From Hormiphora californensis (taxonomy: Eukaryota; Animalia; Ctenophora), in assembly GCA_020137815.1 (NCBI GenBank), contig CM035353.1, forward strand, positions 2,294,001 to 2,358,000: DNA of 64,000 nt, written 5' to 3'. The notes under the pieces were generated by a model. It worked only from the letters and a program-made list of their open reading frames with translations. It did not search any database and was not told the origin of the DNA. A program made the translations under genes and the position numbers. Shown here piece by piece: positions 82 to 63,871 of the stretch (position 1 is its first letter; each line of letters begins with the position of its first letter).

Positions 82-942
82 GCCATCTGATATACCGGAA
101 CCTAAAAACTTGGCACGGGGACAAAGGGCGGTTCAAACTTCAACTGACCTCGGAGGATATGCGTTTAAAGCAGTCGATGGAAATAGGAACGGAGTAAGTC
201 CCGAACACCATTCAATTACTACGCCCTAAATATAAAATAAACCCCTATTTTAACTTAATTAACAGAATTGGTTTTATGGATCGGTGACACACACAAAAAC
301 CGCTAAAGGGCAGTACTGGCTGACCGATCTTGGAAAAACACATTACATAGACCGTTAGTACATAATATATATATCTAACTGTATTCTGTTATATCATATC
401 TAAATCAGCAGTTCTGAGAATCGACAACAATCATATCTCTTGCCTAGCTCGACTGGGTTTTGCGTGCACCACAAATGTAAAGGAGGGTTAGAACACATTA
501 ATCATATCTCCAGATATCACGGTCTACAACAGAATAGATTGTTGCCAAACTCGGCTTGCTGGAGCTATGTTGCTGATAGACGAGAACTACACCGGTTTTG
601 TCTTTTCTTCTGATAACATCCAGACTTTCCACTTTGGAAAGAGGGGAAGGTAAGGCAGATAATTGTTAAATCAAGATTTTTGTAGCTTACACTTCATTTT
701 ATGTCATTTTGTGAGGGTAAAGGGTTCGATAGATCAAAAAAAGATCTCAATCGTGTCATACCCACTCAGGTATCTAAGAATTCTCCAGCGAAGAAACGAA
801 CCATTGTCGTTAGCAGAGTTTGAGGTATATGGTTCAGATGTCACATTTCTCTCAACAGTTCCATATTTTGATCGCTTTGGATTTCTTCATGTTGATGTAA
901 CGAAGAAACAAACGCTTAACTTTGGACACAACCTAATCTATG
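82..942 (+). CDS. F-type lectin (fucolectin/FTP domain) gene, partial; exons 82-193, 266-353, 514-649, 770-942
   Basis: GT-AG exons join in phase to NLARGQRAVQTST..AFKAVDGNRNG/..SVTHT..YWLTDLG../ITVYNRIDCCQTRL../RYLRI..LSLAEFEVYG. The H..RxDxxxxR fucose-binding motif is present. Gene ends are not resolved. Confidence 0.85.
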
Positions 943-955
943 GTAAGTGGGCCTG

Positions 956-1960
956 TAGTAGGGACGAATCTTAATTTTTTGACTCACTATTTGGTGGAAA
1001 GCAAATTCCGGTGGTAACCCACCTATTTTGACCCGCTGAACACGATCCCGTTCATAGGCAAGCTCGCAAAAGTGGAGAAAATGCCCAAATCGGCCACGCC
1101 CTTTTACCTGTATTTTCAGCCTGTAGCCAAAAACATAAATCCTCTTAGAATAGGAGTAGAGACAAATCTGAGGGCACTAAAGTGATCAGCGCCCTCGCAT
1201 TAGTGGGGGTAGGTGCTGGAATTAAGTCTCTATCTCATCTGGTTAATTAGATAATTGGATAATTAGGTTTGCACATAACCGTTTTTTGGCTATATGGCTA
1301 TAGCCACTTAGGAATGGTTTAGAGACTTTTCACTGGCGCCAGTTTGTAGGCAATGGCCAAGTTATGGGGGGTCGACGTCGGACTTTTAAGCTCTATCTCC
1401 AACCGTTTAGCCGTTATTGGGCTAAATCGATGCTCAAAATGAGCGAAAAAACGGTAAAAAGCCCGATTTTGAGCATCGTTTAGGCGCAATAACGGCTAAA
1501 CGGTTGGAGATAGAGCTTAAAAGTCCGACGTCGACCCCCCATAACTTGGCTATTGCCTACAAAATGGCGCCATTGAAAAGTCTCTAAACCATTCCTAAGT
1601 GGCTATAGCCATATAGCCAAAAAACGGTTATGCGCAAACCTAATTATCCAATTATCTAATTAACCAGATGAGATAGAGACTTAATTCCAGCACCTACCCC
1701 CACTAATGCGACGGCGCTGATCACTTTAGTGCCCTCAGATTTGTCTCTACTCCTATTCAAAGAGGATTTATGTTTTTGGCTACAGGCTGAAAATACAGGT
1801 AAAAGGGCGTGGCCGATTTGGACATTTTCTCCACTTTTGCGAGCTTGCCTATGAACGGGATCGTGTTCAGCGGGTCAAAATAGGTGGGTTACAACCGGAA
1901 TTTGCTTTCCACCAAATAGTGAGTCAGCCACTTCTTTTTATAAGAGATTCGTCCCTACTA
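956..1960. mobile_element. ~1 kb foldback (palindromic) non-autonomous DNA element
   Basis: Termini TAGTAGGGACGAATCT / AGATTCGTCCCTACTA, arms near-perfect up to ~1450, CTG on both flanks. Confidence 0.85.
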
Positions 1961-3958: not shown

Positions 3959-5252
3959 ATTGTCTTCTGTACAAAATAGAGGATTGTTAAAAACATTATA
4001 ATATCGATCGGTCAACGATAAAAAATTAAAAATTTCAACATCGATCAGAAAAACAAACAGGTTGCATATAGGAAATGTATGTGAAAAGTATAACATTTTG
4101 ATGCACATACAAATGTTCGACAATTAATGTTCGACAATTTAATTACACGTAAAGGTGACTAAACACACAAAGGAAAATAACAAAAGTTCTTATCCTTTTT
4201 TTTGTCAAATTAGTCTGTCGCACACATACATTTTTCAGCCCGTTGTATATATTCTCTCCCTCGCACACTCACACACATGGCAAAACAAATAAATAGAAGA
4301 TGACAAAATAAAAGTCTTTAAAATACACGAGATCGTGTAGTAGAACAGTCAAACACACAGACTCAAACACCTCTATATAACATATGACATGTATTCCAAC
4401 AGTTTTGTGTATGTGAAAGTTGAACAACAACTCAGTTCCAGTTGTGGAAAAGTGAAAGTGTCACAAGAAGGTGAGAAAAACAAACCGGAACTCAATTTAT
4501 AACACCGCGCCTTCCATCCGTTGCACCGAACACAAAAAAAAACATGGGAAACAGTACTTTGGAGAGGGTAACAGTACTTTGAAGAAACAGAAACGAGATT
4601 GATGAGGTACAGTACAGTTTTAACAACAGCCTGTTAGGGGGGAACAAGTGTTAAATACAGCTCGACCTACAAAACTGTATTTCAAATACAGATAGACCTA
4701 TGATACTGTATTTCAAATACAGATAGACCTATTATAATACTGACACCCATTTCACCCAAGCAGCCCAATAAATGCAGATCTATCAGAATCTTACAGGATA
4801 AGTATCGGATAATTGTTTATGAGCCGCATGATAATTGTTTGTTGGGATGATATCTCCTTCCGGCTTCAATCAATCAGGACAAAATGAAAAGCGGTGTTTT
4901 TATTAACGAACAGTTTCGATGTTACAACATCTTCCTCAGCCTACAAAATTTGGAAAATTGGTTAAAATCAAATCACATAGCTGTACACACACTGCAATAC
5001 TAATATAAGACTAAAAATAAAGTACTAAATAACTAAATAACTAAATAACTAAATAAATAACTAAATAACTAAAATGGGTAATAACAAAATCTAATAATCT
5101 AAGTCTACAAATCTAAATATCTAAAATACCAAATAATGATAACTACTCAACATCTCAAACCTAGGGAGATGAGAAAAGATGATATTTAAACATCAACGCA
5201 GATATTTATACGACATCTTTTCTCTCTCTCTCTCTCTCTCTCACTCTCTCTC

Positions 5253-5298
<46 letters not shown>

Positions 5299-5631
5299 GA
5301 CTCTATCTCTTCCCTTCTATCTAAACTACTATCGAAAACTGGATCACGCGATCTAACTGGTAAAGTAACGGACATAAAGAAATCAGATCTGAATAATTAA
5401 TGAAATACATAAATTAAATAAATTAAATAAATTAAATAACTAAAAATCTGGTTAAATCTGTCATCTCTTCCTTTAAATTAATAGTCGGTTTCAATCTATG
5501 AATAAATGACGCTTCAATAATTTTCCTGTATAACATTTTAGTCTCAGTTGCTAATATACTAAAGCTAAGATTCGGAGTGGTGTTCGGAGCGTAGTTCATC
5601 CCCATCACATGTTGAACAGTCTCGGGAAGTA

Positions 5632-6273
5632 GTGGATAACCTGCTCCTGGCTAATGGATACACAGATCCCCGTACTTTTGCTTTCGACACCCATATCTCA
5701 AACCATCAACATCGGAACGAGACTACAGAGGAACAGGTGATTCTAAAGCTACCGTACATAACTGAGGGCTTCAGTGACCAGGTTACTCGGTTTGTCATTT
5801 CAAACAACCTTCCCATCAAGATTGTGTTTACGCCAGGCAGGAAGTTGAGAGAGATCTTCTGCTCTTCTAGACCTAGAGATGGACTACCAACTTGCCATCT
5901 AGCGAACTGTAAAATTTGCCCTATCCTTACAGACGGACATTGTCAAATTATTGCCCCTGTTTATAAAATTGAGTGTGTGTTATGTGGCGAAATGTATGTA
6001 GGAGAAACGGGCAGGACTGCCAAGGAAAGACTCTCTGAGCATCTTCGCTGTGCGAATTCTCCCTCAGCGAAGTCGTACAGAGAGAAAGCCCTTGCACTCC
6101 ATTACAGTACCTTCCACCCGAACACCACTCCGAATCTTAGCTTTAGTATATTAGCAACTGAGACTAAAATGTTATACAGGAAAATTATTGAAGCGTCATT
6201 TATTCATAGATTGAAACCGACTATTAATTTAAAGGAAGAGATGACAGATTTAACCAGATTTTTAGTTATTTAA
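5632..6273 (+). CDS. Penelope RT thumb remnant plus GIY-YIG endonuclease (truncated)
   Basis: LKLPYI..IVFTPGRKL..C..C..C..C..VYKIECVLCGEMYVGETGRTAKERLSEH..IIEASFIHRLKPTIN. Confidence 0.88.
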   Translation: MDNLLLANGYTDPRTFAFDTHISNHQHRNETTEEQVILKLPYITEGFSDQVTRFVISNNLPIKIVFTPGRKLREIFCSSRPRDGLPTCHLANCKICPILTDGHCQIIAPVYKIECVLCGEMYVGETGRTAKERLSEHLRCANSPSAKSYREKALALHYSTFHPNTTPNLSFSILATETKMLYRKIIEASFIHRLKPTINLKEEMTDLTRFLVI

Positions 6274-6406
6274 TTTATTTAATTTATTTAATTTATGTAT
6301 TTCATTAATTATTCAGATCTGATTTCTTTATGTCCGTTACTTTACCAGTTAGATCGCGTGATCCAGTTTTCGATAGTAGTTTAGATAGAAGGGAAGAGAT
6401 AGAGTC

Positions 6407-6450
<44 letters not shown>

Positions 6451-6756
6451 GAGAGAGAGTGAGAGAGAGAGAGAGAGAGAGAAAAGATGTCGTATAAATA
6501 TCTGCGTTGATGTTTAAATATCATCTTTTCTCATCTCCCTAGGTTTGAGATGTTGAGTAGTTATCATTATTTGGTATTTTAGATATTTAGATTTGTAGAC
6601 TTAGATTATTAGATTTTGTTATTACCCATTTTAGTTATTTAGTTATTTATTTAGTTATTTAGTTATTTAGTTATTTAGTACTTTATTTTTAGTCTTATAT
6701 TAGTATTGCAGTGTGTGTACAGCTATGTGATTTGATTTTAACCAATTTTCCAAATT

Positions 6757-6800
6757 TTGTAGGCTGAGGAAGATGTTGTAACATCGAAACTGTTCGTTAA
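6757..6800 (+). ncRNA. Putative minimal hammerhead ribozyme in the pLTR (mirror copy 4903-4946, minus strand)
   Basis: CTGAGGA-A-GATGTT gt AACATC-GAAAC. Core boxes and stem II are intact; stems I and III are weak. Confidence 0.6.
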
Positions 6801-7480
6801 TAAAAACACCGCTTTTCATTTTGTCCTGATTGATTGAAGCCGGAAGGAGATATCATCCCAACAAACAATTATCAGAATCTTAAACACACAGTAAAACTGA
6901 AAGACATACACCGCTTGAAATCCTAACATTTAACAAACCCTTTGGCTTTTGGGTGGTTCCCGTTTTTCCCGGGGGGTTACCTGTAGAGGTTTTTTTCCTT
7001 CCGTTTTACTTTAGTTTTATTTTGTTGGTTTTTGCTGGGGCCATTCCCTCCATCCTTTAACTGATATACGTAAACCCTCTTGAAAAGAAATGCTACAAAG
7101 ATATTGAAACGACAGCTACTTTAACAGTTGCTGGGGAGCATGCGTGTGAAATGACGACAGTTCCAATGGATAGTTAGTCTGGTTATTTCCATCCAATAAT
7201 AATGTTGGTATTTGCTCATTTAATTAAAAATTATATTAATTAATTAATTAATTAATTACCTTTGTTGCCATCCTCCAAAATAGTTTGTCCACTTCCAAAG
7301 GTAGGCCTGGTACCCGTCGTGCGATACAGGCGACATTGCCGCCCCCAAGTATCAAACTCACATGCTAGAGAGGTTAAGACGTGGTCATTTGTGTGTTTCG
7401 TGGTAGGATTAAAATAGAAGTTCAAGGTATACTTAAAAAATGAAATTTCACATACAAATATTTACAAAATAATAAAAAAT

Positions 7481-9627: not shown

Positions 9628-11077
9628 TTAGTTGGGTCGGTTATACTGCTGTACACCAGGGGGTGTGGAGCTGTAGTAGTTGTTCATTCCACTTCCAAAG
9701 CCACTTGAGTTCATATTGTTGTTGTTGTTGGCAGGTGCAGCGGGGTTGTAAAATTCTGAGCTATTTCCAAACATTCCTCCCGGCTGGGCGCCCTGAGTGG
9801 TGAGGAGGTGGGGCTGAGTGGTGAGGTGGGGCTGTTAGGTGGGGCTGAGTGGTGAGGAGGTGGGACTGAGTGGAGGAGGGGGGCTAAGTGGTGATGCTAA
9901 CGAAGGTGAGAGTGGGATAAGGACTATTGAGGTAGCCCTGTGGCTTAACAATTGATCATCTTACGATTGTGGACATACCTGGTGATCGAAATTAGATGTT
10001 TTCTTGTTCAGATTATTTGCAACTGCCACCGACAGGCTACTAGCGATAGAAACCATTGCCGCCTGAGCAGACGTGGTATTCTCATGATGGAGTGCATTCA
10101 GAGCAATTTTAATGCTCTCTACTAACATCCGAGTAGTCCCCGGAGTGTTCTGTTCCGCGACCGTGGCTAATAGGGGTGTAAAAGCGCTGATTAGGGCAGT
10201 GGCAGTAGCGTTGTTGCCACCTCCATATTGGTTCCTATTTGGTTGCTGTTGAGGGGGTGGTGGAGCAATTGGATATCCACCTCCTCCACCGAACTGATTT
10301 CCACCACCATAGGGGTTGCCAAAGGATGCCTGCTGCTGCATTCCCCCTCCTCCTCCTGCACTGTTCCTAAAATGATTCCGTTTCGAATCCTCTCGTTCAT
10401 CAAAACCGGACGCATTTCGTTTCATTTTATCAGCGGGACTATCAGCATGTTTAACAACGATCGGAGAATTGCAACCATCCATGGTTTGTGATTGGTGCAT
10501 CTCCTTGATAGCTTGGAGGCACGAGCTAGCCTTGGCAAACTTGACAAATCCACATCCCCGGCTCGTCTTTTCGCCATTGATCACTGCAGAGAGGGGATAA
10601 TGGTAAGCAAACAAATACCAGACACACTCAAAAATGAAAGATCAGTGACTTACTAGATGTCAAGATGTTGCAGTCGATAACTTCGCCAAACTTTGCAAAC
10701 ATTGCCTTGAGTTCGTCGCCATTAAGACTCTTCGAGATCATCCCAACAAAGAGACGCTTATCGAACTTCTTGTTGTCATCATCGTGTACTGCCTTAATCT
10801 GCATCTCCTTCTTGGCGCCAGGTAGGGCAATACGATCATGCATTTCGTGCATTGCATTTTCAGCGTTGTCCAGATTAGCAAAGGTTACAAATGCGCATCC
10901 CTTATGAGTTTTAGTATCCCGGTCTCTACATACTTTGATGTTAACCAATGGTCCATATTTCTCAAAATACGGTTTTAAATCCGATTCCTCGAAGTTCTTT
11001 GGCACTTGCCCAACGAAGAGTTTTAGCGTCATGTCCATTACGACCTCATTGTTGTGATACTTAGCGATCAGGGACAT
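9628..11077 (-). CDS. CELF/Bruno-like RNA-binding protein; exons 11077-10654, 10583-9979, 9792-9628
   Basis: RRM1 KLFVGQVPK..HKGCAFVTF; RRM2 RLFVGMISK..SRGCGFVKF..MHQSQTMDGCNSPIVVKHAD; low-complexity tail; exon phases consistent. Confidence 0.9.
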
Positions 11078-11591
11078 TGCACTGACGGGGACCAGCGGTA
11101 ACGGGAAAAAGTTGAGTCTGTTGCGAAACAAACGTTAGAGAAACGCGTTGTGAGAAAATCCAAGTTTTCTGTTTTAAATTTTCAACGCGCGTGATGCCGC
11201 GGCAGATAAAAACATTCGCGCGGCGTCAAATTGCAGTTTAAAATAATTTTTTAAGCGCCCGTCTGCAGACATACTATGTACATTGTACATACCGTACAGA
11301 GCTGTTCAAGGATCTAAAAGGAGGCAGTCAGTGAGGCAGTCGAAGGACCATGAAAGGACCCACTTAGCAAATTTACTAAACGAGGTTTTGGCTAAGAAGA
11401 AAATAAGTTAAATTAAAAATGTCACTTCCGCAGATTTCTCTAAACAAAATTTGCCATCTTGGGCGGATATCAGAGACGTAATAAAGGAAACATACAACTT
11501 CGTCAATTATAAAAACCCCACGGCCTGTCCCAAGTGTTAATAAGTTAATACATGACGACTCATTTCGATGTAAAAAAGACAGTCTAAGCCC

Positions 11592-25200: not shown

Positions 25201-28200
25201 TTATTTATTAAGGGGAGATGGCCATGGGAGGTTGCCCGAGCATCCCGGTAAATCGGGGTTCGACTGAAGTATAGCAAACTATTGTAATGTGTGTACCAGC
25301 CTGGTACTATCAGGTACACCAGGGTTAGAACATAACAAGTACCGCACATGTATAGCAACGAATTGTAATGTGTGTACCAGCCTGGTACACTATCAGGTAC
25401 ACCAGGGTTAGAACATAACAAGTACCGCACATGTACCTGGGTAACAGATGTGAGGCCAAGGAGTTCCTGTTTCAGTGGTGGTCCGAGTTGGGTGGTGCCG
25501 GGTATACAACATGCTATTCCATGTCCCCCAAAGAAGTACTCGTTACCATACACGACCACCGCTGTATGCCAAATACCCTCTATCCGTCTGTGTGGATTAG
25601 AGATTAGACACACTTTAGAGAGAGAAACACCCTCGATCCGTCTGTGTGGATTAGAGATTGAGATTAGAATTTAGAAAGAAACACCCTCGATCCGTCTGTG
25701 TGGATTAGAGATCGAGATTAGACTTTAGAAAGAAACACCCTCGATCCGTCTGTGTGGATTAGAGATTGAGATTAGACACACTTTAGAGAGAAACACCCTC
25801 GATCCGTCTGTGTGGATTAGAGATTGAGATTAGAATTTAGAGAGAAACACCCTCGATCCGTCTGTGTGGATTAGAGATTGAGATAATAGACACACTTTAG
25901 AGAGAAACACCCTCGATCCGTCTGTGTGGATTAGAGATCGAGATATTAGACACACTTTAGAGAGAAACACCCTCGATCCGTCTGTGTGGATTAGAGATTG
26001 AGATAATAGACACACTTTAGAGAGAAACACCCTCGATCCGTCTGTGTGGATTAGAGATTGAGATTAGACACACTTTAGAGAGACACACCCTCGATCCGTC
26101 TGTGTGGATTAGAGATTGAGATATTAGACACACTTTAGAGAGAAACACCCTCGATCCGTCTGTGTGGATTAGAGATTGAGATTAGACACACTTTAGAGAG
26201 AAACACCCTCGATCCGTCTGTGTGGATTATAGATTTAGATTAGACACACTTTAGAGAGACACACCCTCGATCCGTCTGTGTGGATTAGAGATTGAGAGAT
26301 TAGACACACTTTAGAGAGAAACACCCTCGATCCGTCTGTGTGGATTAGAGATTGAGATAATAGACACACTTTAGAGAGAAACACCCTCGATCCGTCTGTG
26401 TGGATTAGAGATTGAGATTAGACACACTTTAGAGAGAAACACCCTCGATCCGTCTGTGTGGATTAGAGATCGAGATTAGACACACTTTAGAGAGAAACAC
26501 CCTCGATCCGTCTGTGTGGATTAGATATTGAGATTAGACACACTTTAGAGAGAGACACACCCTCGATCCGTCTGTGTGGATTAGAGATTTAGATTAGACT
26601 TTAGAGAGAAACACCCTCGATCCGTCTGTGTGGATTAGAGATCGAGATTAGACACACTTTAGAGAGAAACACCCTCGATCCGTCTGTGTGGATTAGAGAT
26701 TGAGATTAGACACACTTTAGAGAGAAACACCCTCGATCCGTCTGTTTGGATTAGAGATTGAGATTAGACACACTTTAGAGAGACACACCCTCGATCCGTC
26801 TGTGTGGATTAGAGATTGAGATTAGACACACTTTAGAGAGAAACACCCTCTATCCGTCTGTGTGGATTAGAGATTGAGATTAGACACACTTTAGAGAGAC
26901 ACACCCTCGATCCGTCTGTGTGGATTAGAGATTGAGATTAGACACACTTTAGAGAGAAACACCCTCGATCCGTCTGTGTGGATTAGAGATTGAGATTAGA
27001 CACACTTTAGAGAGAAACACCCTCTATCCGTCTGTGTGGATTAGAGATTGAGATTAGACACACTTTAGAGAGAAACACCCTCGATCCGTCTGTGTGGATT
27101 AGAGATTTAGATAATAGACACACTTTAGAGAGAAACACCCTCTATCCGTCTGTGTGGATTAGAGATTGAGAATAGACACACTTTAGAGAGAAACACCCTC
27201 GATCCGTCTGTGTGGATTAGAGATTTAGATTAGACACACTTTAGAGAGAAACACCCTCGATCCGTCTGTGTGGATTAGAGATTGAGATTAGACACACTTT
27301 AGAGAGAAACACCCTCGATCCGTCTGTGTGGATTAGAGATTGAGATTAGACACACTTTAGAGAGAAACACCCTCGATCCGTCTGTGTGGATTAGAGATTT
27401 AGATTAGACACACTTTAGAGAGAAACACCCTCGATCCGTCTGTGTGGATTAGAGATTGAGATTAGACACACTTTAGAGAGAAACACCCTCGATCCGTCTG
27501 TGTGGATCACAGTGGGTAACGACCCTACAAAGTGGGAAAAAAGTTGTCTTTAAATTTGCTGAAATTTGGATATCGATTGTAAAAATAATCAAGGTTTCAC
27601 GTAAAACAAACCGCATCGAAAAATATTGAGATTTACAGATTTTATGTTAGTTTGAAGTTGAGGGAAATTGTGGGGTTTCATTTTGGCTGTGAAATTCGCT
27701 TAGATCCATGTGCACACTACTGCAATACCTTTCATTCTTTTTCTTTCATTTCTTTTGTATCGTGATGGTTGTTTTGTGTTCTTTTCAGTGACTAGGGTTC
27801 AATATGTCTTACTCTAACTGTTTTTTCTCAGTCGCGTGTGTCAAATTTAGGCTATTTTTAGGGTATGAATGACCAAAAAAAGTTACTTCGCCACTCGACG
27901 CCAAGATTTTCATTGTGATATTCTGACTCTCTGGACAATTTGGAACATTGTGGTGTCGCGGGAATTCCCCACTTTTCCCCCGTTTGAATTTTATAGCCAT
28001 TTAAAGTGCGAAATTTAAGCGATTTTTCGCTTTTTCGGCTTTTATGTGTAAAATGCCTGATCTAAAATGGCATATAACTCAAAAACGGTTTGATTTAGGC
28101 CATATGTTGCTTCATAAGTCCTATATAAACATGCACATTCCGGACAATTTGCATCAAAAATTGGATCTCTAAGTGGTTCCTGAGCCAAGTTACGTTTTTA

Positions 28201-29199: not shown

Positions 29200-29400
29200 T
29201 TGAGCTCCGGCTTATTAAGCCAGAGCGAAGATATTATCTATCTTGTTCCAATCTTTGACTAGATACGGATAGTTTTCTGGGAGGGTAATGTGTTCCATAG
29301 CCGAGTCGCTCTACAGATGAACGAGTTGTGGTACTTCGTCGCGACTGACTTAAGTGTGATTGTGGGATAGATTGGTCCAGTTGGGGCAGATTCAGAACAC
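29200..29400 (-). mobile_element. Decayed CR1/L2-like LINE 3' fragment
   Basis: SVATKYHNSFICRATRLWNTLP, similar to 30180-30260. Confidence 0.6.
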
Positions 29401-30023
29401 CGCTCATCATCACCACAAAATACTTATTATTCTACTTTGTTGTGCTGGCTTGCACAAAGGTGACCCCCCCCCCCCCCCCCAAACCGTACATGCCATAATT
29501 TTCAGGAAAAACTACATGAGATACACTCGTTTGTTTCATTCGAAAGCGGAAAGATAATCATTCGGATTGTGTTATTGGATGGTTTTTATGTTCTAGGTCC
29601 TAGCAGAGCGCCTTAAAAACTGTCAATTTACACCCTGAAGACGGCTTCTGATTGAAAAAATGGAGACCACACTAACGAAAGATAATTGACTAAACTATCA
29701 GAAACATTATGGCGATTTTTTTGGAGGTTTGTTCGGGCAAAGTAACCCTGTATCAAAATTACTCTATCCACCAAAGTCTAAACCAATCAACCGTTTAATT
29801 ATTAAATCTGTTTACAATAATCTGACATTGTCAATATTGCCCTCCTATTTGCAAGGGTGGCTAGTTTAAAGTTTATCAGTCTTTTAAGGGGAGAGCGCTG
29901 AGCACTTCCGTAACTGAAAATCTTGATGCTCAGAACAAAACGGGGACCAGGGGCCGCCCCTGAGGGGTGGAGCTTGTAGTCTTGTAGTCCTCTTTGTGCA
30001 GATACTGCACAGGTGTCAGCTCC

Positions 30024-30630
30024 TCATAGAGCCTCCCCCTCCCTGGAAGCTATTCGTGCCCAGTCAAGAATTGAGTTATTATTCTGTCGAGAATATCCAG
30101 TCACCGGGGGACGGTCAGGGAATCTCTTCAGCCATTTACCAAGGAGAACTTTGAATGAGGCTAGGTCTTCTGCCGTATTCACGTTGCTTGGTAGAGTATT
30201 CCAAAGTCGAGCCGCTCTGCAGGCAAAGGAGTTATGGTACTTCGTAGCGACAGACACTTGTGTGGTGGTGGGGGATGTTGGAACCTCAGCTTTTCTTCCA
30301 AGTCTTGTATTATTGTGGAATGTCAGCCCAATGTTGTTAGGGGCACTTCCGTTCGCCATCTTCCACACCATGATGATAGAGTAACGTTCCCGACGTCGCT
30401 GCATGGAATGTAAGTTCAGTTTTTTTCAAGCGATCCCAGTAGCTCAGGTCGCTCATTCCAAGAATGCGTTTGGTGAACTTTCTCTGTACTGCTTCAACAC
30501 TATAATGTTAGAGATTTTGGGCGAGTCCCAGAGTGGGCAGCAATATTCCAGCTTGCTTCTGACAAGACTTCTGTAGATGATGAGCATTGTCTTGGGCTGT
30601 CTTGTTTTGAAAGCACGTAGAACCCATCCG
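30024..30630 (-). mobile_element. CR1/L2-like LINE ORF2 C-terminal fragment (frameshifted)
   Basis: GWVLRAFKTR..YRSLVRSKLEYCCPLW..QRRRERYSII..RLWNTLP..LKRFPDRP. Confidence 0.85.
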
Positions 30631-30765
30631 CCAGCAGGTCGCAGGAGTCAAGGGGCTACAATTTTCAGCTGAAATTGACATTTTTTACACAATCTGAGCG
30701 CGTTCCAGGCACTCGAGGAATGGCCTCATGTCTTCTAGGAAACAGCAATCCGACACCGTGGCTTC

Positions 30766-33620: not shown

Positions 33621-33683
33621 TACTTGAATCAGTGGTTAAAACGTTCATCCAACAAGTTGAGACAATCCAAAGTTGAGACAATC

Positions 33684-33721
33684 CAAACTTTTCAACACTA
33701 CTTTAAACAAATTAATTTGAG
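33684..33721 (+). other. Spliced-leader exon copy fused to the LINE 5' end
   Basis: CAAACTTTTCAACACTACTTTAAACAAATTAATTTGAG matches the ctenophore SL as recalled. It is not followed by a GT donor. Confidence 0.75.
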
Positions 33722-33757
33722 GCGGCACCCCCCCCCCCCCTCAAATCATTTGCAGCT

Positions 33758-35050
33758 ATGTCCGATGATGCAGGAATAGTGGAGACAGTGTTGGCGAACT
33801 TGAGGACAGCGGCTGGTGCCAAGGGTGCGAAAGCTGTCGAAGTTTACGAGTTTGAGGATAGCCACGAGGAAAACGTTAGCCGGATGAAAGTTAAGACTAA
33901 CGATGAACTGAAACCGGTATGTAAGGTTCTGGGAGTACCGCTGGTGGGACGGGACGGGAAATCTCGAGACAAGCGAGAGCTGGCGGACAAGATAGTTCTC
34001 CAGATAGAAACATTGTTTCCCATTGACTGTCAAGACTGCGGGGAAAAATACAGGATCGAACTTGGGAAAAAACCCATATTGAGGTGCTTTCTGTGTGGGC
34101 AAGGGGCACACGCATGTAAGTTCTCAGTAGAGGGAAGCAGACTTGGGTCTGTATGGTTATGCTTTTGCTGCTGGAAGAAAAATGAGGAAAATACCGACAG
34201 GGAGGAGCAGAACCAAGACCCGAATGAGACGGAGGATGAGAAGACAGTCGGCACCGAGAAGGATGGTGACGAGAAGGTCGACGCTGACGACAACAAGGCG
34301 GCAGAGAAAAAAGAAGATACGAGGAAGAAAGGTACAGAGGATGGGGACAAAACATTGGAAATTAACTCCGGAAATGTATGCAGTTACTTTCTGAACAAAA
34401 ATTGCAGACACGGCAGAAAAGGAGATCAGTTGGTGAACGGAAAGGCATGCCCAAAACTTCACCCGGTACTTTGCAAGAGATTCTGCAACTATGGAGGTTC
34501 CAAACGTTATGGCTGCATCAAGGGAACACAGTGCAAGTTTCATCATCCACCCCTGTGTAAGGGTTCCGATGCAAGAAGGGCGTGCTACGACAACCAGTGT
34601 AGAATGACACACCTATTGCACACTAGTAGGACGAGAGAGGAACCCCAGAACCCCTGGAAACCAGAAGGGTCAAAGCGGACAACGGCATGGAAACCCTCTG
34701 CTCAGGTAGGAGACACAGCAGACACGGCGTTTAGAGCTAAGCGGCAGAGGAAAATGCTGGAGACAGAAAAAGTGGGAGGACCAGTAACTAAGGAGTTTCT
34801 CCTGGAGACACTGGAAAAGATAAATGCCGAACCTCGTAAAGAGAAACCAGAAGTGAAGAGGGAAGAGCCCCTAACAAAGGATTTTTTACTGAAAGCACTG
34901 GAGGTCATGAAGGCAGAAATACAGCAATCGGTGGTTCTACAGTTGCTGGAGTTCAAGACTCAGGTGGTGGATCCGCTAGGGGGAGGAAATATGAAAACAA
35001 CTTGGGGAACAGCAGGAATACACCCCATACTTCAAAATTTCACCTCCTAA
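33758..35050 (+). CDS. LINE ORF1 with PHD-like finger and three CCCH fingers
   Basis: CQDC..CFLCGQGAHAC..WLCFCC; C..CRHG..CPKLH, C..C..CKFHH, C..C..CRMTH. Confidence 0.85.
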   Translation: MSDDAGIVETVLANLRTAAGAKGAKAVEVYEFEDSHEENVSRMKVKTNDELKPVCKVLGVPLVGRDGKSRDKRELADKIVLQIETLFPIDCQDCGEKYRIELGKKPILRCFLCGQGAHACKFSVEGSRLGSVWLCFCCWKKNEENTDREEQNQDPNETEDEKTVGTEKDGDEKVDADDNKAAEKKEDTRKKGTEDGDKTLEINSGNVCSYFLNKNCRHGRKGDQLVNGKACPKLHPVLCKRFCNYGGSKRYGCIKGTQCKFHHPPLCKGSDARRACYDNQCRMTHLLHTSRTREEPQNPWKPEGSKRTTAWKPSAQVGDTADTAFRAKRQRKMLETEKVGGPVTKEFLLETLEKINAEPRKEKPEVKREEPLTKDFLLKALEVMKAEIQQSVVLQLLEFKTQVVDPLGGGNMKTTWGTAGIHPILQNFTS

Positions 35051-37986
35051 ATGCCAGGAGTTTTTGTCCATCCGCGGAGACTACCTGGAAACTTGAGGTG
35101 GTACGAGACATGGTGGACGACGAGACCACTCCTGTGGCTTTCCTGGGCATAACGGAAACCTGGTGGAGAGGGTATATGGCGGAGGCCCAGCTGAAGATTT
35201 CTGGATATAACCTGGTGAGATGCGATAGGCAGGGCAGGATAGGAGGAGGATGTGCCCTGTATGTCCACTCTAGCCTCGCTATATCAGATCAAGTGGAGTA
35301 TTCGGACACAAGTAACAACCTGGCAGCCGTCTATATGGGCAACACCCACTCAATAGTGGCAGTTATATATCGAGCTGGTACAGATGCAACAGCTTTTCAG
35401 AGACTGGTGAAAAAACTGCAGACGTTTATTGATACTCATAGCTGGGAAAAAACAGTTCCGGACCTGTGGTTGATGGGTGATTTTAATCTCCCACTCCTGA
35501 AATGGAGAGGAGGGTTGCATGAAACTATTGACCATCCCTTGTACAATATTATGGGTAACTTGGTAGACGATAATTCTCTCAGCCAAATGGTCAATTTTCC
35601 TACCAGAGGAGAGAACGTCTTAGATCTGGTGCTAACCAACCGTCCCGATTATGTCCTTTCAACTAGGGGTGAGGACCTCGGGATTTCTGATCATGAGATG
35701 GTTACATGTACCCTGACCTACAATTGCACGGCGAAGCCTCCCATGGACGATCGTGTTATGTCAGACTTTGCGGAACTTAATCTTTTAAAAGCTGACTTTG
35801 ATAGGCTAAACTCTGTCTTTGACGAGGTGGAATGGGATCAGCTTCAACTACTGTGTACAGAAATGGAAGACCCCGATAGTAGCTTCTTAGAGGTAGTGAG
35901 ACTTACGGTCCTCCAGGTCTGTAAGATCTTCACTGAGCTGAAACGTTGGAAAAGTAAACGGAAGGACAAAACACTCCGGCACCTTCGTAGCAGGAGAAGA
36001 AAGTTGAACAAGAGAATGGTAAACGCAAAAGGCACGACGAAGCTGAAAATTGAGGAGTTGGCCGGGAAAATAACGCTCGCCATCAAAGCTCATGTTAAAG
36101 AAAAGGAGCAGGGGGATGAAGAACGAGCTGCTTCCGCAGTCAAAGTGAACCCTAAATTCTTCTACAGTCATGCTAAATCTCTATCCAAGGTCAAATCTGC
36201 GGTGGCTCCACTCGAGAGGCAGGATGGTTCGCTTACTACGAACTCGAAGGAGAAAGCAGAACTCCTACAGAGTCAGTATGTTAGGGTGTTTAGCAACCCA
36301 CTGGACGTGGACCCTGAAAAGGCAGTGGAGAACATTGAGGAAAAGGAAGCGGAAATAACTGACATCAGCTTCACGAAGGCGGACATTGAACAGGCACTAA
36401 AGGAACTGAAACCGAATTCAGCGGCCCCTCCTGGTGACATACCGTCCATAGTCTTGAAGAACTGCCGTCGAACCTTGTCCTATCCCATCTGGATTATATG
36501 GCAGTCCTCGTTTGAATCTGGTACAATACCACCCGTTATGAAGGAGCAGTTCATCTGCCCCATTTTCAAGAAAGGTGATCGTTCAGCACCAGGGAACTAT
36601 AGACCAGTATCACTGACGTCTCATCTTTCGAAAACCTTTGAGAGAATTATCAGGAATCATCTGACTGAGTTCCTAGAGAGGGCAGAACTACATTGTAACG
36701 GACAACATGGGTTCAGGAAAGGGAGAAGTACAATGACTCATCTGCTCGCACACATTGACAGGGTTCTCAAACATCTAACGGATAACAACGAAGTTGATGT
36801 GCTATATCTGGACTTCCAGAAAGCGTTTGACCGGGTTGATACTGGGGTCCTACTGAGAAAACTACAAAAATATGGTGTACGAGGAAAGCTACTTGCCTGG
36901 ATCAAGGAATTCCTAACAAATAGGAAGCAAGCAGTGCTAGTGGATGGGGAGCAGTCGCGGTGGGAGTGGGTCCTAAGTAGTGTGATCCAGGGAAGTGTGC
37001 TGGGCCCTATTTTGTTCATCTTTTACGTAATCGACTTGAAGGAGTCTTTGTCAAGTGCTGACGCTTTGTCGTTTGCAGACGACACGAAGCTCATACAGGT
37101 AATACGAACATTGCTAGACCAGGCAGAACTCCAGAAGGACTTGGGAAATGTGAGTCAGTGGTCTCTGACTAATAATATGAGACTTCACGAGGAAAAATTT
37201 CAACTGGTAAACTACTCGCTAGGCAGATCTAAACTCCTGAGAGAGCTGCCTTTCACTGCAGAAACCTTATCCTATATTACTTCGGGAGGAACTGTGGTGG
37301 AGCCAGAGCAGCATGTGAAAGATTTGGGCGTTTGGCTATCGGCGGATGGTACGTGGACTCATCACATTGGTGATATTGTGAGGAGAGCTAACATGATGGC
37401 AGGATGGATATTCTGTGCATTCAGGAGTAGATCCCGTGAGGTACTGCTAACCCTATATAAGGCGTTGGTTCGACCCATTTTGGAATACTGCTGTTTGGTG
37501 TGGTATCCAACGAGAATCGCTGACATCCAGGCAGTAGAGAACGTCCAACGGGCATTTACCCGGAAAATCCAAGGGATGAAGGAGCTGGACTATTGGCAGC
37601 GTCTAGAGGCGCTGGATCTCATGTCCCTCCAGAGAAGACGTCAACGATATGAGCTGATACACGTTTGGAAAATCTATCACGGGCTAGTACCCAACTGTGT
37701 GCAAATGGAGTTCCAGATTGGCCGGTTGGGAGTCCAGGCAAAGACACAGAAATACCCTTACTGGGCAGATTCCAAATGGGCAGGTCAGTTGTACAACTCT
37801 TTCAGCTTCAGGGCACCTCAACTATGGAACAGACTCCCTCGAGAGGTTACTCTTTCAGGAACACTTCCTGGGTTAAAGGCTAACTTGGGTGCATTCATGA
37901 AGCAATTCCATGACAGACCACCGGTGCGTGGCTACACGACGGTCCCAAATGATTTCAGAGAGGCAGGAAGAAAGAACTTTGTGTGA
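35002..37986 (+). CDS. LINE ORF2, APE endonuclease plus reverse transcriptase
   Basis: NARS, GITETW, MGDFN, LDLVL, SDH; NYRPVSLTS, QHGFRKGRS, LDFQKAFD, QGSVLGP, FADD, DLGV. Confidence 0.95.
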   Translation: MGNSRNTPHTSKFHLLNARSFCPSAETTWKLEVVRDMVDDETTPVAFLGITETWWRGYMAEAQLKISGYNLVRCDRQGRIGGGCALYVHSSLAISDQVEYSDTSNNLAAVYMGNTHSIVAVIYRAGTDATAFQRLVKKLQTFIDTHSWEKTVPDLWLMGDFNLPLLKWRGGLHETIDHPLYNIMGNLVDDNSLSQMVNFPTRGENVLDLVLTNRPDYVLSTRGEDLGISDHEMVTCTLTYNCTAKPPMDDRVMSDFAELNLLKADFDRLNSVFDEVEWDQLQLLCTEMEDPDSSFLEVVRLTVLQVCKIFTELKRWKSKRKDKTLRHLRSRRRKLNKRMVNAKGTTKLKIEELAGKITLAIKAHVKEKEQGDEERAASAVKVNPKFFYSHAKSLSKVKSAVAPLERQDGSLTTNSKEKAELLQSQYVRVFSNPLDVDPEKAVENIEEKEAEITDISFTKADIEQALKELKPNSAAPPGDIPSIVLKNCRRTLSYPIWIIWQSSFESGTIPPVMKEQFICPIFKKGDRSAPGNYRPVSLTSHLSKTFERIIRNHLTEFLERAELHCNGQHGFRKGRSTMTHLLAHIDRVLKHLTDNNEVDVLYLDFQKAFDRVDTGVLLRKLQKYGVRGKLLAWIKEFLTNRKQAVLVDGEQSRWEWVLSSVIQGSVLGPILFIFYVIDLKESLSSADALSFADDTKLIQVIRTLLDQAELQKDLGNVSQWSLTNNMRLHEEKFQLVNYSLGRSKLLRELPFTAETLSYITSGGTVVEPEQHVKDLGVWLSADGTWTHHIGDIVRRANMMAGWIFCAFRSRSREVLLTLYKALVRPILEYCCLVWYPTRIADIQAVENVQRAFTRKIQGMKELDYWQRLEALDLMSLQRRRQRYELIHVWKIYHGLVPNCVQMEFQIGRLGVQAKTQKYPYWADSKWAGQLYNSFSFRAPQLWNRLPREVTLSGTLPGLKANLGAFMKQFHDRPPVRGYTTVPNDFREAGRKNFV

Positions 37987-38144
37987 GGCTGTAAATGTTG
38001 TTTTGCTGCTCATGCTGTTTATGTTTTTATGTTAAGTAAGGGACTGTAAATAAACAATTTGACAAGGAGGACCCACGCGATGGGAATTTCATCACGTTTT
38101 ATGTATTGTGTAAAAATATAATTGAACTTGAACTTGAACTTGAA

Positions 38145-39250
38145 AATTCACAAAGAGAATCCAGGATATGTGCAAATTAAGCTATTGGGACCGAAACTAG
38201 GCATCCTCTCGCTTCAACGAAGGCGAGAACGCGACTTAGTCAGGACCACTATTGGTGCGCGGTCGTGCCCACGGAAGGAGTGCTTGGATCATCTTGAAAC
38301 CGGTTTTAAGTTCACTAATGCATGCCCAAAAGTGTATGTAGCCATTTGGGTGATGTTCTGACAATCCAATCACGAGTTATGACCGAAAGACAGTCAAAAA
38401 AGACGTTTTAAAGTGACAAAAAGGAGGATCTGAACACAGCCCTTATATGAAGGGCTGGGGCTTTGAAACTTCTTGTGTGGACAGAGAATCGTCCAAATTT
38501 GCAGTGTCAACTTTCAGATAGTTTCTATCTTTTGTAGTTATCTAATTAGAGTCGTTTAAACATGTGAGACAACCTATATGACCCTACAAAACAGGGTGAT
38601 TAGGTACTGCTTCCGTCTCATATTGCTTGCTCTCACCGCTTGTATGCTTTAATCCGCTCTCTAATTGGGCAAATCTCGTCAAGTGATCACTTCACAAGCA
38701 TTATTATAGGGCCCTTTAGCAACTTCTCACATGTTTAAACGACTCTAATTAGATAACTACAAAAGATAGAAACTATCTGAAAGTTGACACTGCAAATTTG
38801 GACGATTCTCTGTCCACACAAGAAGTTTCAAAGCCCCAGCCTTTCATATAAGGGCTGTGTTCAGATCCTCCTTTTTGTCACTTTAAAACGTCTTTTTTGA
38901 CTGTTTTTCGGTCATAACTCGTGATTGGATTGTCAGAACATCACCCAAATGGCTACATACACTTTTGGGCATGCATTAGTGAACTTAAAATCGGTTTCAA
39001 GATGATCCAAGCACTCCTTCCGTGGGCACGACCGCGCACCAATAGTGGTCCTGACTATACTCCATCATCATGGTCCGGAAAATGGCCAACGGCGAAACAC
39101 CAAACATTATCGGGATCTGCTTTTACCAAAATGATCGTCTCGGAATACAAGCGGAGGTGCCAACGTATCCCACTAGCACACAATCGTCGGTGGCCACGAA
39201 ATTCCAAAACTCCTTCCCGACTATGGAACACTCTCCCAAGTGATGTGAAC
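38145..39250 (+). pseudogene. Old LINE 3' fragment split by a foldback element
   Basis: LSLQRRRER (to ~38232) resumes as YSIIMVRKMANG..RLWNTLPS at 39058-39250. Confidence 0.7.
38237..39057. mobile_element. ~820-bp foldback element
   Basis: TAGTCAGGACCACTATTGG / CCAATAGTGGTCCTGACTA with arms of ~330 bp. A piece of the end recurs at ~42578-42636. Confidence 0.85.
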
Positions 39251-39554: not shown

Positions 39555-39588
39555 CAAACTTTTCAACACTACTACAAATTAATTCGAG
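39555..39588 (+). other. Second, shorter spliced-leader-like relic
   Basis: CAAACTTTTCAACACTACTACAAATTAATTCGAG. Confidence 0.6.
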
Positions 39589-39659
39589 TTTCTGAATGAA
39601 GCCTCAAGGCCTCCAATGCGATTCTATATTGGATATATGGAGGCCCTCCATATCCAATA

Positions 39660-40992
39660 GAGGCACTGTTAGGAATGGCCGACACTAACAATTTTTTTGT
39701 TAGTGTTTTTTGTTAGTGACGTCACTAACAAAAAATTTGTTAGTGTTTTCACTAACAAAAAACACTAACAAAAAATTGTTAGTGTTTTCACTAACAATTT
39801 TCACTAACAAAAATTTTGTTAGTGTTTCTAATTGGGGTGATATATGGTTATGAGATACGATTCAGGGACGCCTTATTGGCAGTGTGAGACGATACGGGTT
39901 ATGGAACATGATTCGGTGAAGCTTATTAGGATGGTTAGGCGACATGAGACACGATTCGGGGAAGGTTTTCTTCGTTTTTCGAGTAACGATACATGGAAAA
40001 TGAAGATATTTGTGAGTAGACAAGAAATACACCAATTTCAAGAGAACAAAACTAAAAACACAAATCAAATAACTTGTCCACATTTAGTTGCTCTGTCCAA
40101 CAATTGGAGTACAATACGAACCGATTACCCCACCATATGATCCTATCACCCTGCCACACGAACCAATTACCACACCATATGATCCGGTTATCAAACAGAC
40201 CGATTACCACTGCACTTGAGGTATCACGTATCGGCATGAGGTACACCGAATCGTGAGCAGTATCCCGTATCGGTTGATGTTGTAAGAGGTTCCGCTGCTA
40301 ATGAGGCACACCGAATCGTGAGCAGTATCCCGTATCGGGGCTCAGTGCTCACGATTCGGTGTACCTCATTAGCGGCAGAACCGCTTACAATGTGAACTGA
40401 TACGACGGTATCCCAGTATATCGCTCCTACTTGATAATGAGGAAGTGAACTTACAAGAGAGTTTACAGGCCCATTGGACGACTCTTCCCCGACACCATAC
40501 ACAATCGGATGAACGAACCTGCCACAAAATCCGACAACCTGGCAATATCTCAAATGGAGAGCCTTTCAACAGAGCAACTAAATGTGGACAAGTTATTTGA
40601 TTTGTGGTTTTAGTTTTATTCTCTTGAAATTGGTGTATTTCTTGTCTACTCACAAATATCTTCATTTTCCATGTATCGTTACTGGAAAAACGAAGAAAAC
40701 CTTCCCCGAATCGTGTCTCATGTCGCCTAACCATCCGAATCATGTTCCATAACCCGTATCGTCTCACACTGCCAATAAGGCGTCCCTGAATCGTATCTCA
40801 TAACCATATATCACCCCAATTAGAAACACTAACAAAATTTTTGTTAGTGAAAATTGTTAGTGAAAACACTAACAAAATTTTTGTTAGTGAAAATTGTTAG
40901 TGAAAACACTAACAAATTTTTTGTTAGTGACGTCACTAACAAAAAACACTAACAAAAAAATTGTTAGTGTCGGCCATTCCTAACAGTGCCCC
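39660..40992. mobile_element. 1.3-kb long-TIR element, possibly Sola2-like
   Basis: G(A/G)GGCACTGTTAGG termini, 4-bp TSD AATA, CACTAACAAAA subterminal repeats. Confidence 0.75.
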
Positions 40993-41130
40993 AATATATT
41001 ATAATCTATTAAAATCCGCACTTTATTTCAACGTGTTTTAGCCGTCATGTAGAGCTACTGGTCGCACTGGTTCCTGCTGCAAGTGTGAATTATGAAGATA
41101 TTGATAATGTTATAGACAACCCCCGCTCTC

Positions 41131-63871
<22,741 letters not shown>

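Follow-up and report, generated by a model that had tools for sequence, protein, structure and literature searches.

Each time a LINE is copied, the element has to restore its own 5′ end, and two solutions to this problem are known: an internal promoter and a self-cleaving ribozyme. R2 carries an HDV-like ribozyme at its 5′ end, and spliced leader (SL) trans-splicing was described for the Penelope-like elements of rotifers and the LTR elements of Oikopleura. An HDV-like ribozyme or an internal promoter was described at the 5′ end of L1Tc/ingi elements (PMC3185411, PMC1874656), and L1Tc RNA was reported to be unspliced. The insertion of NeSL and CRE/SLACS elements into SL genes relies on a restriction-like endonuclease (PMC4640811). 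In Hydra, full-length CR1 transcripts, and also Tc1 transcripts, were reported to carry the SL, which was present on about 30% of transposon Iso-Seq reads (PMC12220107). An SL1-spliced subgenomic RNA was reported for the Cer1 element of C. elegans (PMC3315495), and SL relics were reported in dinoflagellate retrogenes (PMC12014239). The leader of the ctenophore Hormiphora californensis is given as 44 nt in length, present on 56% of Iso-Seq reads and represented by 718 genomic copies (PMC8527503). No description of LINE families with genomic copies beginning in an SL was found in the open-access literature that was searched.

The window analysed in this study was a 64,000-nt stretch of H. californensis DNA (assembly GCA_020137815.1, contig CM035353.1, positions 2,294,001–2,358,000 of the forward strand), which contained a LINE with an SL exon as its 5′ end. 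The Hydra CR1 transcripts carry an SL, as would be expected of the RNA of the comb-jelly element; however, the observation described in PMC12220107 was made at the RNA level, whereas in the comb jelly most genomic copies of the family, and of several lineages, started with the SL in their DNA. As in the dinoflagellate retrogenes, a genomic SL remnant marked a copy derived from RNA. The retrogenes described in PMC12014239 carry host genes as cargo, with relics stacked behind a new SL, whereas the comb-jelly LINE was an autonomous element with one near-complete SL, unstacked in 12 of 12 copies. The NeSL and CRE elements are similar in that SL sequence adjoins the element end (PMC4640811), but the endonuclease of the comb-jelly LINE was of the APE type and the SL was missing from the empty site; the earlier note on this locus, made from the sequence alone, had set it apart from NeSL-type elements, and these two features bore this out. 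R2 and L1Tc face the same problem of defining a 5′ end, sometimes solved by release from a co-transcript. In contrast to these, the comb-jelly window gave no Rfam match at the gathering score, which a divergent 5′ ribozyme could escape, and the proposed release would use the host spliceosome. The element shared with CR1/L2 its two ORFs, APE and reverse transcriptase (RT) domains, short-repeat 3′ tail and lack of a target-site duplication, and differed from them by a 36-nt UTR located behind a host leader. New here is a genomic, family-wide and multi-lineage SL-led pattern in an animal, with an empty-site control.

Organization of the SL-led LINE

The element and its flanks were composed of the following features, in which X2, X3 and X7 are DNA sequencing runs and L062 is the SL RNA gene locus:

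33656–33671, + strand: left-hand target DNA up to the insertion point, a single copy in the empty allele (joints of X2 and X3 at 33671 and of X7 at 33663)
33672–33687, + strand: 16-nt tandem duplicate of the left target, with its last 4 nt shared with the SL; skipped in the empty allele
33684–33721, + strand: SL exon, the last 38 nt of 43 (SL gene), forming the element 5′ end (compared with the published leader and the L062 exon)
33722–33757, + strand: 5′ UTR, 36 nt, with a C run, an SL-complementary stretch and a CAG
33758–35050, + strand: ORF1, 430 aa, Cys/His-rich (ORF translation)
34840–37986, + strand: ORF2 frame from stop to stop, with APE endonuclease and reverse transcriptase (FADD) (Pfam)
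37987–38121, + strand: 3′ UTR, 135 nt (sequence)
38122–38144, + strand: 3′ tail of 6-nt repeats, 3.8 copies (repeat finding and empty-site joints)
38142–38236, + strand: right-hand target DNA beyond the insertion point (empty-site joints)

The sequence at 33684–33721 was identical (38/38) to the final 38 nt of the 44-nt leader published for H. californensis (PMC8527503), and the same 38 nt ended the 43-nt exon of L062. The 38-mer was thereby confirmed as the ctenophore spliced leader, as the earlier note had stated, and its position 36 nt (33722–33757) ahead of the ORF1 ATG (33758) also agreed. The SL was directly followed by GC and not by a GT donor, and the L062 intron had no match anywhere in the window, including beyond the 3′ tail of the LINE, so that the claimed absence of both donor and intron was upheld. 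The matches between the window and the L062 unit were confined to the exon (33684–33722, and a degenerate copy at 39555–39588). At the element, the match stopped inside the exon without SL-gene upstream sequence, the flank was unlike that of L062, and neither the promoter or intron of an SL gene nor a 5S unit was found within the window. A 36-nt piece of the SL had a single occurrence in the window, whereas 0 of 100 shuffles contained it. With 718 copies in 110 Mb, a given ATG would have a same-strand SL in the 36 nt ahead of it with a probability of about 1e-4.

A second, degenerate SL copy was located at 39555–39588 (+), 1.4 kb downstream of the LINE, with 33 of 38 positions matched and a 4-nt deletion. 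No LINE protein or UTR match was found behind this copy, and a foldback element started approximately 70 nt downstream of it.

The LINE had been described as intact. ORF1 and the ORF2 frame contained no stop and no frameshift, in agreement with that description; however, the ORF2 frame, which overlapped the end of ORF1, had its first AUG (35110) inside the endonuclease and none before the first endonuclease motif, and the word intact says nothing on how ORF2 is translated. ORF1 showed PHD-like and CCCH-like Cys/His spacing by eye and had no significant Pfam match. Its closest named relatives were proteins of Pleurobrachia bachei, one of which was 88% identical across 35% of the ORF1 length, and alignment of ORF1 with metagenome contigs gave no loci (0 confirmed of 157 pattern matches). 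The ORF2 frame matched N-terminal APE-type domains and RVT_1 in Pfam, with no RNase H and no restriction-like endonuclease. In a quick RT tree of 115 of 124 sequences, ORF2 of the window was located in a clade of 71 rows (SH-aLRT 100) together with two Mnemiopsis proteins; the sole named row outside was a bird protein labelled CR1 by inference. The LINE is CR1-group-like in its domains and 3′ tail. The C run of the 5′ UTR (33728–33740) was 13 C long in the window copy; the main contigs of three runs had 7 C.

Empty allele, junctions and family-wide SL–UTR join

The empty insertion site was recovered from all three DNA runs with cover. The X2 contig (depth 50) joined 33671 to 38142 with 91 letters on the short side, and the X3 contig (depth 155) joined 33671 to 38143 with one letter between and 43 letters on the short side. 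The X7 contig (depth 70.5), from a different organism by code, joined 33663 to 38142 with eight letters between. The earlier note had considered that the empty allele might already have the SL; the SL was absent from it in 3 of 3 runs, and the 16-nt tandem duplicate was missing as well. Because the empty allele was without both, the SL and the duplicate arrived with the element, and the LINE was not inserted into an SL gene or relic.

The 16-nt tandem duplication claimed at the 5′ junction was real. Its best register was refined to 33656–33671 and 33672–33687, and its final 4 nt coincided with the start of the SL match, a 4-nt microhomology. No target-site duplication was present, the longest word common to both flanks being 6 nt, and the last 3 nt of the LINE tail overlapped the right-hand target. 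A left join by microhomology and an overlap of the tail with the target fit known CR1/L2-type integration. No bridging read or contig for the left junction of this copy was among those listed; the junction rests on the window sequence, and the insertion is therefore likely to be recent or population-specific. A resemblance of the left flank to a tRNA was discounted, since it came from one 13-nt match only and ARAGORN and Rfam were empty in the window.

The SL–UTR join was found in the same three runs. In X2, the SL–UTR contig (33701–33759) had a depth of 461, compared with 552 for the UTR contig and 436 for the ORF1-start contig. In X3, one contig (33711–33785) of depth 2182 carried all of the depth at 33736–33753, and in X7, two SL–UTR contigs had depths of 603 and 51, compared with 671 for the UTR. 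The SL-joined share of the UTR depth was 84% (X2), 100% (X3) and 97% (X7), at 9–14 times the depth of the empty-site contig; contig depth is not copy number, and these shares are a rough guide only. The SL–UTR contigs had only 10–21 SL letters on their short side, under the 31-letter bridging rule. A variant contig, the upstream end of which was unseen, was present at single-copy depth in X2 (58) and X7 (50). Among the loose ends listed, none lay before 33722, and the loose ends revealed sibling families with the same SL–UTR start. A 429-nt contig of X7, in which 195 other letters were followed by 37 SL letters and the UTR start, is an independent insertion of a relative. The SL was thus shown to be the 5′ end of most copies of the family. 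The run X15, classed as RNA by guess, covered 3 of 30 bins, with the ORFs and the empty site outside, and the RNA run X13 gave four SL-only contigs and likewise left the ORFs uncovered; neither result counts in either direction.

SL at the 5′ ends of mRNAs

An exact search of metagenome contigs with the 3′ 26-mer of the SL gave 97 stretches in 96 loci, with full flanks for the first 79 loci and flanks of about 300 nt for the remaining 17. The set was chosen by an exact SL match, so that full-length LINEs without an SL could not enter it and their share cannot be read from it. The SL pattern gave 0 stretches in viral contigs and 0 in prokaryote contigs. In 80 of the 96 loci, the sequence upstream of the 26-mer was 10 nt or less. 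Among the 85 loci of six mRNA-like assemblies, 66 of 84 scanned downstream ORFs matched host Pfam families, including Ras, dynamin, collagen, 14-3-3 and ribosomal proteins, and none matched RT. The occurrence of the SL at mRNA 5′ ends, which the earlier note had proposed to check, was thus observed: the 26-mer opened dozens of unrelated mRNAs. Locus L062 was an SL RNA gene in a 778-bp tandem unit, in which the 43-nt exon was followed by a GTAAG donor and which also contained a 5S rRNA gene; at 1–1945 of this locus, the SL RNA and 5S rRNA genes alternated on the same strand.

Three SL-led contigs (L003, L032 and L034) contained two full ORFs in tandem, unrelated or paralogous, from chimeric assembly or polycistronic RNA. 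In addition, L067 contained an SL-led transcript at 244–1470 (+) with ORFs without a Pfam match, which we take to resemble Polinton/Maverick polymerase-region proteins.

SL-led LINEs in distant lineages

In two DNA-like assemblies, none of 11 loci combined the SL with a recognisable host gene, and one of the 11 was an SL gene. Across all assemblies, 11 flank-bearing loci other than the window copy had the SL behind sequence that was not SL gene (L016, L025, L028, L044, L057, L060, L088, L095, L049, L086 and L091). Loci L025, L028 and L044 contained ORF1 and an APE/RT ORF2 behind the SL, and L016 contained ORF1 and the start of ORF2. Locus L057, from an mRNA-like assembly, had 367 nt upstream, the start of an endonuclease, and an ORF1 that was 29% identical to that of the window. 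These were the 5 of 11 loci with endonuclease or RT evidence. Locus L060 was linked to the LINE loci by a homologous ORF1 (31–37%), and L088 and L095 by homologous UTRs (73–92%). The ORFs of L049, L086 and L091 are presumably similar to LINE ORF1. For these ORFs and that of L007, no significant Pfam match, no PDB match and no fused longer form supported an assignment to LINE ORF1; in the Atlas, they led to unnamed ctenophore clusters (0.93) and, at 0.87, to Baculo_FP_2nd (13% of members). Locus L007 was SL-led at 6–959 (−), in an mRNA-like assembly, and encoded a 318-aa protein of the unnamed ctenophore clusters, possibly as a LINE ORF1 transcript.

The SL matches of the 11 loci were 28–43 nt in length, ended inside the exon in every case and never entered the upstream DNA of the SL gene. 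Their flanks were unlike the SL gene and unlike each other, three of them being only 1–6 nt long. The earlier note had suggested comparing the 5′ ends of the copies for zero, one or stacked SLs; exactly one SL match, and no stacking, was found in each of the 12 flank-bearing copies (the 11 loci, which were picked by SL presence, and the window copy). The SL was short of its 5′ end by 1–15 nt in 10 of the 11 loci, and the window copy was likewise short.

The ORF2s of L025, L028 and L044 were 24–26% identical to that of the window and formed a long separate branch in the RT tree. The SL-led habit thus spans at least two distant RT lineages. The 17 SL bases located 5′ of the search word, which were unselected, retained at least 14 bases in 8 of 11 loci, and four related UTRs differed by 8–27%. 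A drift test on these bases gave P values of 2e-4 at 11% per-lineage divergence and 0.22 at 4%, for loci that are not independent of each other.

A motif of about 25 nt with a small GC hairpin was located 15–40 nt after the SL in L007, L049, L086 and L091, and more loosely in L057. It was common to loci whose ORFs were about 25% identical or unalignable, and it was not found in the UTR of the window family. This motif could be a promoter element, a splicing signal or a packaging signal.

Directly behind the SL, 3 of 13 LINE-type sequences (L049, L057 and L091) had the acceptor-like hexamer TTTYAG, compared with 0 of 83 host mRNAs. The L057 contig, with the SL on the − strand, began with a donor-like GTAAG and had an acceptor-like stretch 4 nt ahead of the SL-led LINE. 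This contig may represent a precursor made by read-through, or else stray DNA.

Acceptor candidates and predicted UTR hairpin

The terminal AG of the SL reads as GAG, and an ordinary-looking CAG was located at 33753–33755. GAG is a rare 3′ splice site. No join of the SL to the CAG (33755) was present among the joins listed. The stretch 33739–33752 was complementary to the SL 3′ end and was predicted to form a hairpin with 33708–33722 (z −2.86, 2 of 200 shuffles), in which the terminal GAG was paired with a probability of 0.97; the complementarity was matched in 4 of 5000 UTR shuffles. The complementary stretch could mask either the terminal AG or the CAG at 33753–33755, or it could base-pair in trans with the SL RNA over the donor of the latter. 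The hairpin came to light post hoc and is specific to the window family. The corresponding SL–UTR pairing was 0.01–0.73 in 12 other LINE-type loci and exceeded 0.8 in 2 of 83 host mRNAs, and the duplex energy was as good as that of the window UTR in 28 of 83 host mRNAs. The hairpin was rejected as a general LINE feature because of its weakness in the 12 other LINE-type loci.

Proposed renewal of the 5′ end and alternative explanations

These LINE DNAs very likely descend from SL-trans-spliced RNA. The earlier note had claimed that the LINE RNA was SL trans-spliced and then reverse-transcribed to its 5′ end, in agreement with an SL that is the 5′ end of the family and is absent from the empty site. 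Its further suggestions, a promoter-less element, excision from host read-through RNA and the terminal AG as the next acceptor, stand as proposals. The SL is probably renewed in each cycle from read-through RNA, because a promoter would hardly fit into the 36-nt UTR, the SL of most copies lacks a few bases at its 5′ end, and the SL is still identical to that of the host. In a wider reading, with a probability of roughly 0.55, several unrelated pleurobrachiid LINE lineages would have given up their promoters, and SL trans-splicing of read-through RNA would renew the 5′ end and the cap at each cycle.

In the proposed cycle, a neighbouring host promoter would drive transcription of a genomic copy that lacks one of its own. 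The spliceosome would then put a fresh 43-nt SL at the 5′ boundary of the element, and the upstream flank and the old SL would be discarded. An exact replacement of the SL would need its terminal AG (GAG) as the candidate acceptor. The capped RNA would yield ORF1 and ORF2, the latter of which would prime reverse transcription on the 6-nt repeat tail and create no target-site duplication; here the junction was observed, and the mechanism would follow CR1/L2 behaviour. Copying would reach a few bases short of the cap, and the 4-nt microhomology would join the left flank, with the 16-nt target duplication; this junction was also observed, and the order of its steps is the probable one. Trans-splicing would replace the internal promoter (L1) or the 5′ ribozyme (R2, L1Tc) in restoring a defined 5′ end.

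An unlikely alternative is that the SL was captured once per lineage and is now fixed, with the SL and a downstream motif acting as an internal promoter from SL +1 and selection keeping the SL identical to that of the host. Such a promoter would account for the clustering of 5′ ends at the SL start and for the lack of stacking, without a GAG acceptor. The conservation of the post-SL motif among barely alignable loci and the complementarity of the window UTR to the SL 3′ end point in the same direction, as does the promoter role proposed for the TTTT box of the SL in dinoflagellates (PMC12014239). However, an internal start should erode in copies short of the SL 5′ end, as 10 of 11 loci and the window copy were; an identical SL at 24–26% RT identity demands several captures, each strictly conserved; and the motif was absent from the UTR of the window family.

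We find it more doubtful still that the SL-led copies are dead ends, the many promoter-less daughters made from the trans-spliced RNA of one or a few masters in which the native promoter, outron and acceptor persist and which are renewed by rare unspliced RNA. The variant contig found at single-copy depth in X2 and X7, with its unseen upstream end, is consistent with such masters, and the locus set was biased to SL-bearing copies. In C. elegans, both SL1-spliced and unspliced RNAs were reported for Cer1 (PMC3315495), and in Hydra, DNA transposon RNAs get SLs too (PMC12220107), so that an SL can be incidental. Against the masters stand the single X3 contig, which ran from the SL through the UTR and contained all of the depth, although assembly can drop rare branches, and the lack of a loose end before 33722 among those listed. 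It is highly improbable that the LINE landed in or beside an existing SL gene or relic, by NeSL/CRE-like targeting or by chance, or that the arrangement is an assembly artefact. The 718 SL copies of H. californensis (PMC8527503), the degenerate copy near the LINE and the absence of the left junction of the window copy from the listed contigs of every run would suit such an origin, but the empty site without an SL largely refutes it. The window, moreover, had neither an SL-gene promoter or intron nor a 5S unit, the endonuclease was of the APE and not the restriction-like type, and three independent DNA runs showed the SL–UTR join at high depth.

If renewal by trans-splicing of read-through RNA is true, host trans-splicing would be a third solution to the 5′-end problem, and transposon activity would be tied to host transcription and the SL machinery. 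Many of the hundreds of dispersed SL copies of ctenophores would then be LINE 5′ ends. SL-led LINEs may explain part of the 718 copies in Hormiphora, which are left unexplained where PMC8527503 reports them. The SL is also a simple tag for full-length LINEs and marks insertions made via capped, processed RNA.

Other features of the window

Fragments of the 3′ part of related LINE ORF2s were located at 29988–30644 (−), 29277–29348 (−) and 39058–39216 (+). A GIY-YIG ORF at 5569–6273 (Pfam E 2e-4) lay inside 99% inverted repeats at 4829–6874 and is likely a Penelope-like fragment in a foldback element. Many long, near-perfect inverted repeats of foldback or MITE-like type were present, including 38237–39057, 39657–40995, 62278–63531, 980–1926 and 50056–51381, and a 58-bp satellite was located at 25571–27507. 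Two intronless genes for receptors with LDLa and seven-transmembrane domains were found at 43064–45298 (+) and 52014–55127 (−). A gene for an RRM protein at 9961–11134 (−) was composed of two slightly overlapping frames, which would fit a small intron, a frameshift or a retrocopy.
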